NCBI RefSeq assembly: GCF_056746865.1
Contig: NZ_CM163382.1
Direction: 5' to 3' (one strand)
Length of the DNA stretch: 64,000 bases
Part shown: in pieces, positions 8,132 to 11,629 of the stretch
How positions within the stretch are numbered: the stretch's first letter is position 1
Layout of the letters: each line of letters starts with the position of its first letter
Notes under the pieces: model-generated
The model's database searches: none
Told to the model about the DNA's origin: nothing
What the model saw: only the letters and a program-made list of their open reading frames with translations
Translations under genes and position numbers: made by a program

Positions 8132-11100
8132 ATGGGTAAAGGCAGCAGTAAGGGGCATACTCCGCGCGAAGCGAAGGACAACCTGAAGTCCACGCAGTTG
8201 CTGAGTGTGATCGATGCCATCAGCGAAGGGCCGGTTGAAGGTCCGGTGGATGGATTAAAAAGCGTGCTGCTGAACAGTACGCCAGTGCTGGACAGTGAGG
8301 GGAATACCAATATCTCCGGCGTCACGGTGGTGTTCCGGGCCGGTGAGCAGGAGCAGACACCGCCGGAGGGATTTGAATCCTCCGGCTCCGAGACGGTGCT
8401 GGGTACGGAAGTGAAATACGACACGCCGATCACCCGGACCATCACGTCGGCAAACATTGACCGACTGCGTTTTACCTTCGGCGTGCAGGCACTGGTGGAA
8501 ACCACCTCAAAGGGGGACAGGAATCCGTCGGAAGTCCGCCTGCTGGTTCAGATCCAGCGTAATGGTGGCTGGGTGACGGAAAAAGACATCACCATTAAGG
8601 GCAAAACCACCTCGCAGTATCTGGCCTCGGTGGTGGTGGGTAACCTGCCGCCGCGCCCGTTCAATATCCGGATGCGCAGGATGACGCCGGACAGCACCAC
8701 AGACCAGCTGCAGAACAAAACGCTCTGGTCGTCATACACCGAAATCATCGATGTGAAACAGGGCTACCCGAACACGGCACTGGTCGGCGTGCAGGTGGAT
8801 TCGGAGCAGTTCGGCAGCCAGCAGGTGAGCCGTAATTATCATCTGCGCGGGCGCATTCTGCAGGTGCCGTCGAACTATAACCCGCAGACGCGGCAATACA
8901 GCGGTATCTGGGACGGAACGTTTAAACCGGCATACAGCAACAACATGGCCTGGTGTCTGTGGGATATGCTGACCCATCCGCGCTACGGCATGGGGAAACG
9001 TCTTGGTGCGGCGGATGTGGATAAATGGGCGCTGTATGTCATCGGCCAGTACTGCGACCAGTCAGTGCCGGACGGCTTTGGCGGCACGGAGCCGCGCATC
9101 ACCTGTAATGCGTACCTGACCACACAGCGCAAGGCGTGGGATGTGCTCAGTGATTTCTGCTCGGCGATGCGCTGTATGCCGGTATGGAACGGGCAGACGC
9201 TGACGTTCGTGCAGGACCGACCATCAGATAAGGTGTGGACCTATAACCGCAGTAATGTGGTGATGCCGGATGATGGCGCGCCGTTCCGCTACAGCTTCAG
9301 CGCCCTGAAGGACCGCCATAATGCCGTTGAGGTGAACTGGATTGACCCGAATAACGGCTGGGAGACGGCGACAGAGCTTGTGGAGGACACGCAGGCCATT
9401 GCCCGTTACGGTCGTAACGTCACGAAGATGGATGCCTTTGGCTGTACCAGCCGGGGGCAGGCACATCGCGCCGGGCTGTGGCTGATTAAAACAGAACTGC
9501 TGGAAACGCAGACCGTGGACTTCAGCGTGGGCGCAGAAGGGCTTCGCCATGTGCCGGGCGATGTCATTGAAATCTGTGATGATGACTATGCCGGTATCAG
9601 CATCGGCGGGCGCGTGCTGGCGGTAAACAGCCAGACCCGGACGCTGACGCTCGACCGTGAAATCACGCTGCCATCCTCCGGTACCACGCTGATAAGCCTG
9701 GTTGACGGAAGTGGCAATCCGGTCAGCGTGGAGGTTCAGTCCGTCACCGACGGCGTGAAGGTGAAAGTGAGCCGTGTTCCTGACGGCGTTGCTGAATACA
9801 GCGTGTGGGGGCTGAAGCTGCCGACGCTGCGCCAGCGCCTGTTCCGCTGCGTGAGTATCCGTGAGAACGACGACGGCACGTATGCCATCACCGCCGTGCA
9901 GCATGTACCGGAAAAAGAAGCCATCGTGGATAACGGGGCGCACTTTGACGGCGACCAGAGCGGCACGGTGAATGGTGTCACGCCGCCAGCGGTGCAGCAC
10001 CTGACTGCCGAAGTCACCGCAGACAGCGGGGAATATCAGGTGCTGGCGCGCTGGGACACGCCGAAGGTGGTGAAGGGTGTGAGCTTTATGCTTCGCCTGA
10101 CCGTAACAGCGGATGACGGCAGTGAGCGGCTGGTCAGCACGGCCCGGACGATGGAAACCACTTACCGCTTCACACAACTGGCGCTGGGGAACTACAGGCT
10201 GACAGTCCGGGCAGTAAATGCGTGGGGGCAGCAGGGCGATCCGGCGTCGGTATCGTTCCGGATTGCCGCACCGGCAGCGCCGTCGCGGATTGAGCTGACG
10301 CCGGGCTATTTTCAGATAACCGCCACGCCGCATCTTGCGGTTTATGATCCGACGGTACAGTTTGAGTTCTGGTTCTCGGAAAAGCGGATTGCGGATATCA
10401 GGCAGGTTGAAACCACAGCACGCTATCTTGGCACGGCGCTGTACTGGATAGCCGCCAGTATCAATATCAAACCGGGCCATGATTATTACTTTTATATCCG
10501 CAGTGTGAACACCGTTGGCAAATCGGCATTCGTGGAGGCTGTCGGTCAGCCGAGTGATGATGCATCAGGCTATCTGGATTTTTTCAAAGGAGAAATCGGG
10601 AAAACACATCTGGCCCAGGAGCTGTGGACGCAGATTGATAACGGTCAGCTTGCGCCTGACCTGGCTGAAATCAGGACGTCCATTACGGATGTCAGCAATG
10701 AAATCACACAGACCGTCAATAAGAAACTGGAAGACCAGAGTGCAGCGATCCAGCAGATACAGAAAGTTCAGGTTGATACAAATAATAACCTGAACAGCAT
10801 GTGGGCTGTGAAGCTGCAGCAGATGCAGGACGGACGCCTTTATATTGCGGGTATCGGTGCCGGTATTGAGAACACCCCTGACGGCATGCAGAGTCAGGTG
10901 CTGCTGGCGGCAGACAGGATTGCGATGATTAATCCTGCGAATGGCAACACAAAACCGATGTTTGTTGGTCAGGGCGATCAGATATTCATGAACGACGTGT
11001 TCCTGAAACGCCTGACGGCCCCCACCATTACCAGCGGTGGAAATCCACCGGCATTTTCCCTGACACCGGACGGAAAGCTGACCGCTAAAAATGCGGATAT

Positions 11101-11629
11101 CAGTGGCAGTGTGAATGCGAACGCCGGGACGCTCAACAATGTCACGGTAAATGAAAACTGTACGATTAAGGGCATGCTGGAGGCGACTCAGGTCAGAGGT
11201 GACTTCGTTAAAGCTGTATCCAAATCATTCCCGAAACAGGCTGGTACGTGGGGTAATACGGAAACACCAAACGGGACGGTTACAGTCACCATCAGCGATG
11301 ATCATAACTTTGACCGTCAAATCATTATTCCGCCCATTATCTTTAACGGAATAGCGTATAGCGATCCGGGAAGTGGTAATAACCCGGGAGGTACAAGATA
11401 CACGGGTTATGGTTTTGAAGTTCGCAAAAACGGTGTATTAATCGCATCCAGAGAAACTAAAGGGGCCATTCCCGGTAGCTACAGTGCGGTTATTGATATG
11501 CCGAGTGGCAGGGGAAGCGTCACTCTGGAGTTTAAGATTTTCCAGAAAGGCAATCAGGGCGCAGGTAACATCACAGACTGTACGGTGATTGTGACCAAAA
11601 AAGCTGCTTCCGGTATCAGTATCCGTTGA
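8132..11629 (+). CDS. Central tail fibre / host specificity protein J (1165 aa)
   Basis: 1165-aa ORF; N-terminal and central parts lambda J-like (fibronectin-III-like repeats); the last ~150-200 aa look different from lambda J as I recall it. Confidence 0.9.

Follow-up and report, generated by a model that had tools for sequence, protein, structure and literature searches.

The tip of the central tail fibre of phage lambda has four bottom loops, L1-L4, which insert into LamB, and triggering is described as proceeding from porin binding through spreading of the receptor-binding domains (RBDs), twisting of the beta-prism fibre, and flipping with partial refolding of the helical shaft to opening of the tail tip (PMC11101478). 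Phage 434 uses OmpC, as does lambda equipped with the 434 J gene, which thereby switches from LamB (PMC3509688, PMC11101478, citing Fuerst & Bingham 1978), and, for lambdoid phages of the mEp collection, OmpC has been recognised as a class of secondary receptor (PMC11893012, citing Hernandez-Sanchez 2008). Here, gene J of a lambda-like prophage was examined in a 64,000-nucleotide stretch of DNA, hereafter the window, from contig NZ_CM163382.1 of RefSeq assembly GCF_056746865.1. A sequence-only reading of the window had proposed that the J protein's C-terminal region is unlike that of lambda J, and that the phage probably uses a different outer membrane receptor. The comparisons presented here place the tip, by its sequence, in the allele class of phage 434 ('h434') and not that of lambda, and indicate that OmpC as opposed to LamB is the likely receptor, with a probability of roughly 0.8. 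Hantke reportedly described protein Ib, now OmpC, as the receptor of 434 in 1978.

The open reading frame (ORF) of 1165 codons was confirmed, its translation containing both of the peptides quoted in the earlier reading. Alignment with the J proteins of lambda (NP_040600.1; 1132 residues), 434 (UMO75286.1; 1137 residues) and phage cdtI (orf18, BAF63351.1; 1165 residues) indicates that the protein is a recombinational mosaic, comprising a lambda-like body, a longer shaft of the cdtI/ev099 type (28 additional residues) and a 434-type tip. The modules are as follows.

8132-11629, + strand: gene J, tip attachment protein or central tail fibre, 1165 residues plus stop, identical to RefSeq WP_000515681.1.
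8132-10576, + strand: lambda-like body, residues 1-815, with the hub domains and two fibronectin type III (FNIII)/immunoglobulin (Ig) domains (alignment).
10577-10981, + strand: variant shaft module, residues 816-950, comprising the alpha-helical shaft and upper central straight fibre; cdtI/ev099 type.
10637-10729, + strand: span with the 28-residue insertion relative to lambda and 434, residues 836-856 and 860-866 (alignment gaps).
10982-11170, + strand: lower central straight fibre, conserved, residues 951-1013, including F952 (alignment).
11171-11626, + strand: RBD, residues 1014-1165, phage 434 class (alignment, Pfam, AlphaFold2, Foldseek).

Identity across the body is 98% to lambda (798/815 residues), 99% to 434 (803/815) and 98% to cdtI. 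The shaft module is identical to that of cdtI (135/135) and shares 50% identity with lambda (54/107, with 28 gap columns) and 51% with 434, and is followed by a lower straight fibre that is 92% identical to lambda (58/63), 90% to 434 and 100% to cdtI. For the RBD, the corresponding values are 40% to lambda (57/141, with 17 gap columns), 94% to 434 (143/152) and 99% to cdtI (151/152). The same boundaries are apparent in the DNA, where identity to lambda drops near nucleotide 10590, is down to 0.26-0.63 over nucleotides 10592-10950, recovers near 10950 and falls again near 11150, from approximately which position the sequence tracks that of 434 at 85-98%. The span flagged in the sequence-only reading (10900-11629) is shifted by one base from the reading frame, its in-frame equivalent being 10901-11626 (residues 924-1165). 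Divergence from lambda within this span was borne out for the last 152 residues, which lack high identity to lambda J, but not for residues 951-1013, the actual divergence beginning at approximately residue 1014 (nucleotide 11171) rather than at 10900; over the last 200 residues, 100 of 189 aligned positions (53%) are the same as in lambda. Likewise, the protein exceeds lambda J by 33 residues, in keeping with the estimate of about 30, but the extra length is mostly located outside the C-terminal domain. Its main source is the shaft insertion, upstream of the flagged span, which accounts for 28 residues, with a net five residues contributed by the RBD.

The impression that the tip does not resemble that of lambda holds for the sequence but was overstated with respect to the domain, which is homologous to its lambda counterpart. 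Residues 1029-1164 match Pfam family PF12421 at E=1.4e-25 (Ig_GpJ_C, 'Tip attachment protein J, C-terminal receptor binding domain'), and phmmer comparison with PDB sequences returned chains of lambda gpJ, matched at E=1e-98, along with the A8 gpJ chimera, the E-values ranging overall from 1e-97 to 1e-106. An AlphaFold2 model of residues 1000-1165, built on 20 diverse tips, is all-beta with a predicted local distance difference test (pLDDT) score of 82, and its top Foldseek matches are the solved gpJ tips 9wcb, 8xck, 9wca and 8xcj, with template modelling (TM) scores of 0.72-0.74. These include A8 gpJ bound to OmpC (9wcb; E=8.5e-15, TM 0.73) and, for lambda, the central fibre in its LamB-free form (8xck; E=1.4e-14, TM 0.73) and in the LamB complex (8xcj; TM 0.73). 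Unrelated folds scored about ten orders of magnitude worse. The Ig-like fold located below the beta-prism fibre in the LamB-binding class of lambda is accordingly present, and the window RBD is of the same fold and family as that of lambda, not a foreign domain.

Alignment of 20 tip types revealed a conserved RBD framework, marked by the motifs DDxxFDRQ, NG, DMPxGxG and KKxxxGISI, between which lie four indel-rich hypervariable segments, defined by low column conservation and the presence of indels.

11234-11272, + strand: hypervariable segment 1, residues 1035-1047 (low column conservation, indels).
11348-11428, + strand: hypervariable segment 2, residues 1073-1099, with a 6-residue gap in lambda (tip alignment).
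11444-11485, + strand: hypervariable segment 3, residues 1105-1118 (tip alignment).
11543-11578, + strand: hypervariable segment 4, residues 1138-1149, with two differences from 434, Q1138H and G1143R (tip alignment).

Within these segments the window tip is 91% identical to 434 (60/66 residues), 14% to lambda (9/66) and 17% to A8 (11/66), the respective values for the framework being 96%, 55% and 61%. Neither loops like L1-L4 of lambda, given the segment identity and the 17 gap columns in the RBD, nor A8-like loop sequences are therefore matched by the window RBD, even though the fold is common to all three. The number of segments and their alternation with conserved motifs suggest that they are the counterparts of L1-L4, and would thus serve as receptor-contact loops; in the AlphaFold2 model, segment 1 covers short predicted strands and the intervening loops. 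Because the window tip carries the four variable segments of 434, OmpC is considered the most likely receptor, and the earlier suggestion of a receptor other than that of lambda is supported both by these segments and by the RBD residues shared with 434. Ayreon, mEp332 and PhiR34_1, for which K-12 is the host in the records, match J over its full length with 95-97% DNA identity and 97-98% RBD identity, and the same J architecture is thus found in viable, plaque-forming phages. Receptor assays for the near-identical phages mEp332, Ayreon, ev099, phi458 and the PhiR series were not found in the literature searched, and nor was a receptor determination for cdtI.

Several observations weigh against assignment of the window tip to OmpC. 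The assignment is drawn from a relative, 434, with 94% identity, and it is by analogy with lambda that the variable segments are placed towards the receptor. Moreover, nine of the 152 RBD residues differ from 434, and six of these (Q1036K, A1037V, N1047D, S1077D, Q1138H and G1143R) lie within or adjoining the hypervariable segments. Lambda and phage 21 can change porin through one to a few substitutions in J (PMC11336670, PMC11101478), and the OmpC-binding tips A8 and 1A2 accept different OmpC alleles (PMC11338833); the sequence of the 1A2 gpJ chimera, sought with a view to testing its membership of the 434 class, was not found in the supplements of the latter paper. Finally, the loops with which A8 binds OmpC are unrelated, so that the shared fold is by itself uninformative with regard to the receptor.

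The nine substitutions might lead the window tip to recognise a porin other than K-12 OmpC, with OmpF, a prophage porin of the Lc/NmpC type or only certain alleles of OmpC as candidates. The position of six of the substitutions lends some credence to this idea, as do the difference in allele acceptance between 1A2 and A8 and the finding that a single J mutation confers OmpC use on phage 21, with a few more conferring use of OmpF (PMC11336670). It is nonetheless regarded as unlikely, as the cores of the variable segments are the same as in 434 save for G1143R, and K-12 is the recorded host of phages with RBDs that are 97-98% identical. It is similarly doubtful that the window allele is functionally unlike 434 J, whether through a retuned choice of porin allele or through a longer shaft that alters the relay to tail opening. 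Through the six substitutions in or beside the segments, acceptance could feasibly be retuned towards, for example, individual variants of OmpC or prophage porins of the Lc/NmpC type. If either functional difference from 434 were to apply, the shaft and tip would represent co-adapted cassettes that are not freely interchangeable.

A diverged LamB-binding allele, by which the tip would still use LamB as in phage 21, appears very improbable. The last 242 residues of phage 21 J are 57.5% identical to those of the window J, as compared with 54.3% for the lambda segment, the ancestral phage 21 uses LamB (PMC11336670), and the window tip has its fold in common with the LamB-bound lambda tip. Since the phage 21 tip is diverged and yet belongs to a LamB user, divergence from lambda is not in itself proof of a new receptor. 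However, in the hypervariable segments identity is 14% to lambda as against 91% to the OmpC user 434, and the alleles in the representative protein library form discrete classes, with at least 84% identity within the 434 class versus 38-50% to others. The notion that J is a relic of a decaying prophage and no longer sets host range, prompted by occupancy of the DLP12 site, at which K-12 has a defective prophage, and by a tail-fibre-assembly pseudogene at the right end, can be given least credence of all, given the intact 1165-codon frame and neighbouring tail genes, the replication, lysis, packaging and head genes in the prophage of a 100% identical genome, and the plaque-forming phages that share the J architecture.

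On the favoured reading of a 434-class, OmpC-dependent tip, J is an ordinary, intact gene of a lambda-like prophage. Six Pfam families, each above its curated cut-off, occur in the order FNIII-A_GpJ, Phage-tail_3, Ig_J, Ig_J_second, Phage_Tail_Tip and Ig_GpJ_C, which is the domain order of a lambda-type tip attachment protein (the Phage-tail_3 hub, two Ig/FNIII domains, the tail-tip fibre and the C-terminal Ig-like RBD). The gene closes a tail cluster in the order tape measure, M, L, K, I and J, according to both the ORF order in the window and the NCBI Prokaryotic Genome Annotation Pipeline (PGAP) annotation of the identical genome, in which the same gene, at 100% identity, is labelled gpJ; all of the tail genes near J are intact in the window.

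With 98% identity to lambda J over residues 1-815, the protein presumably forms a trimer at the tail tip, as solved for lambda in structures 8iyk and 8k35. In the trimeric fibre, the C-terminal Ig-like domains would present the four variable segments to the mouth of a trimeric porin, into the extracellular side of which the segments would insert as distal loops. By analogy with lambda, porin binding would cause the three RBDs to spread, in response to which the beta-prism fibre would twist, the helical shaft flip and partly refold, and the tail tip open so that DNA can be ejected. The lambda region that changes on triggering (residues 841-861) aligns with window residues 869-889, which are within the replaced shaft module. 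An AlphaFold2 model of the shaft monomer has helices at residues 811-823, 826-836 and 841-888, with a pLDDT of 47 overall and 53-70 in the helices, and hints that the insertion region may be helical. The trigger for the HepS defence system is the stretch of lambda J around F924, residues 902-933 (PMC13043305), and in the equivalent region of the window (10919-11014; residues 930-961) seven of 32 residues differ from lambda. Escape from HepS by means of an F-to-M change, which had been suspected, was rejected, as the residue aligned with lambda F924 is still phenylalanine (F952).

The 434 tip class is common. The DNA encoding the RBD (11171-11629) has matches at ≥80% coverage in 2091 of 5426 complete Escherichia coli genomes, or approximately 39%, 65 records in the same set being at least 99% identical, and the 434-class RBD occurs in 74 phage records, including cdtI, 434, Ayreon, mEp332, ev099 and many Stx1a and Stx2c phages. 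Among 1.84 billion representative proteins there were 120 matches to the RBD family, with a bimodal distribution between the 434 class (≥84%) and others (38-50%), while a word-index protein search returned at least 8000 scored candidates, all with E≤1e-10. Modularity was surveyed in 236 retrieved proteins, the shaft being measured from VGKSAFVE to NADISG. In this set the 434-type tip occurs with shafts of four types (170, 198 and 271 residues, there being two sequence types at 198), and the window-type shaft with no fewer than four types of tip, the A8 type among them. The modules of J reassort freely among E. coli prophages, in the manner of classical lambdoid mosaicism, and the 434-type tip on a lambda-like J is already known, belonging to an allele class that is very common in a much-studied protein. 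Two further retrieved proteins were unusual in other respects: P0091 is a recombinant within the RBD, with an N-terminal part of another type and the last ~40 residues of the 434 type, and P0001, from Shigella sonnei, has its shaft region internally duplicated. In practical terms, the prophage is better annotated as a probable OmpC-dependent (434-class) lambdoid phage than as a LamB-dependent one, and tip class has a bearing on the prediction of host strains and on superinfection patterns of E. coli prophages. OmpC-targeting J chimeras have already been used (PMC11338833), and the map of body, shaft and tip, together with the four variable segments, could perhaps inform the construction of chimeric lambda particles.

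Over its first 25 kb, the window is 100% identical to E. coli FDAARGOS_1290, in which the prophage is located at the DLP12 site, flanked on the right by appY, ompT, envY, ybcH, nfrA and nfrB. Prophage sequence occupies positions 1-15500 of the window, the flank being at 16000-25000, and the prophage appears complete, unlike DLP12 of K-12. The features immediately downstream of J are as follows.

11650-11679, + strand: terminator-like hairpin and T run after J, identified by scan, with an 8-bp stem containing 6 GC; near-identical in 434 and cdtI.
11684-14059, + strand: side tail fibre gene, directly after the J terminator (ORF list; PGAP start at 11690).

In the window, lom is missing from between J and the side tail fibre gene (11630-11690), a position at which each of lambda, 434 and cdtI carries it. 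The side tail fibre, of 791 residues, has a long, repetitive Ala/Ser/Thr-rich middle with units such as AAKTSETNAKSSQT, and a block of ~60 residues is apparently present in tandem duplicate. Downstream of it are small ORFs, a 234-residue protein with a tail-fibre domain and the tail-fibre-assembly pseudogene.

In a 100% identical genome, the same prophage has a porin gene (NZ_CP070048.1 L004 14482-15564, minus strand) with Q (quuD) on one side and the lysis genes on the other, ~10.5 kb upstream of what is position 1 of the window. Its product shows identities of 91% to the 434B NmpC porin and 90.7% to Lc from phage PA-2. Phage PA-2 has OmpC as its receptor, and in its lysogens the Lc porin brings down the level of OmpC; an Lc-like porin in the prophage would be compatible with an OmpC-dependent phage. 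Porins of the Lc/NmpC type are present in the 434-tip phages ev099, ev207, ev243, Perceval, Kati, mEp332, PhiR26_1, PhiR29_1, PhiR34_1, PhiR49_1 and PhiR68_2, and in 4A7, PhiR29_2, PhiR63_2, PhiR70_1 and Chlobot, which have other tips. They are absent from cdtI and, as judged from the list of porin matches, from Ayreon and all of the 434-tip Stx phages. Strict coupling of the 434-type tip to this porin type was therefore rejected, the porin being found with other tips and missing from many 434-tip phages, in a comparison in which nine porin-bearing phages had no tip class.

Elsewhere, the window has two insertions relative to FDAARGOS_1290. The first, at 32757-34086 (1330 bp), has InsC/InsD-like ORFs and is presumably IS2, and the second, at 52304-53640 (1337 bp), has an ORF for a 372-residue transposase and is taken to be IS186, both having been recognised from their transposase ORFs. 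Additionally, a low-GC islet at ~26000-37400, with a GC content of 0.32 at 26-28 kb, adjoins cusS. It contains ISAs1-family transposases, a PAAR-like protein, a toxin fragment with an HNH/EndoVII fold and a SUKH-3 immunity-type protein, and looks like an Rhs or toxin-immunity remnant.

Considered against described systems, the A8 gpJ chimera (9wca; 9wcb with OmpC) is an engineered lambda J with a natural OmpC-binding tip, which belongs to the same domain family and has the same fold as the window tip (TM 0.73, 44% identity). A natural combination of an A8-type tip and a window-type shaft occurs in P0109 and P0112. At 17% identity, however, the A8 segments represent an independent loop solution, such that the contacts made by A8 with OmpC are not transferable to the window tip. 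Lambda J (NP_040600.1) is similar to the window protein in domain order, fold, residues 1-815 (98%) and presumed trigger mechanism (PMC11101478), and differs in its RBD (40%), hypervariable segments (14%), 28-residue shorter shaft and receptor, LamB. The 434 protein is close in its body (99%), RBD (94%) and hypervariable segments (91%), with a near-identical terminator after J, but has a short, lambda-type shaft (51% over residues 816-950) and nine RBD substitutions, and is followed by the lom gene that the window lacks. Orf18 of cdtI, a lambdoid prophage with cytolethal distending toxin I, shares with the window J its length of 1165 residues, three-module architecture, shaft (135/135) and RBD (151/152), the two proteins differing at ~2% of the body and the prophages in their cargo, with cdtABC, cif and lom being carried by cdtI.

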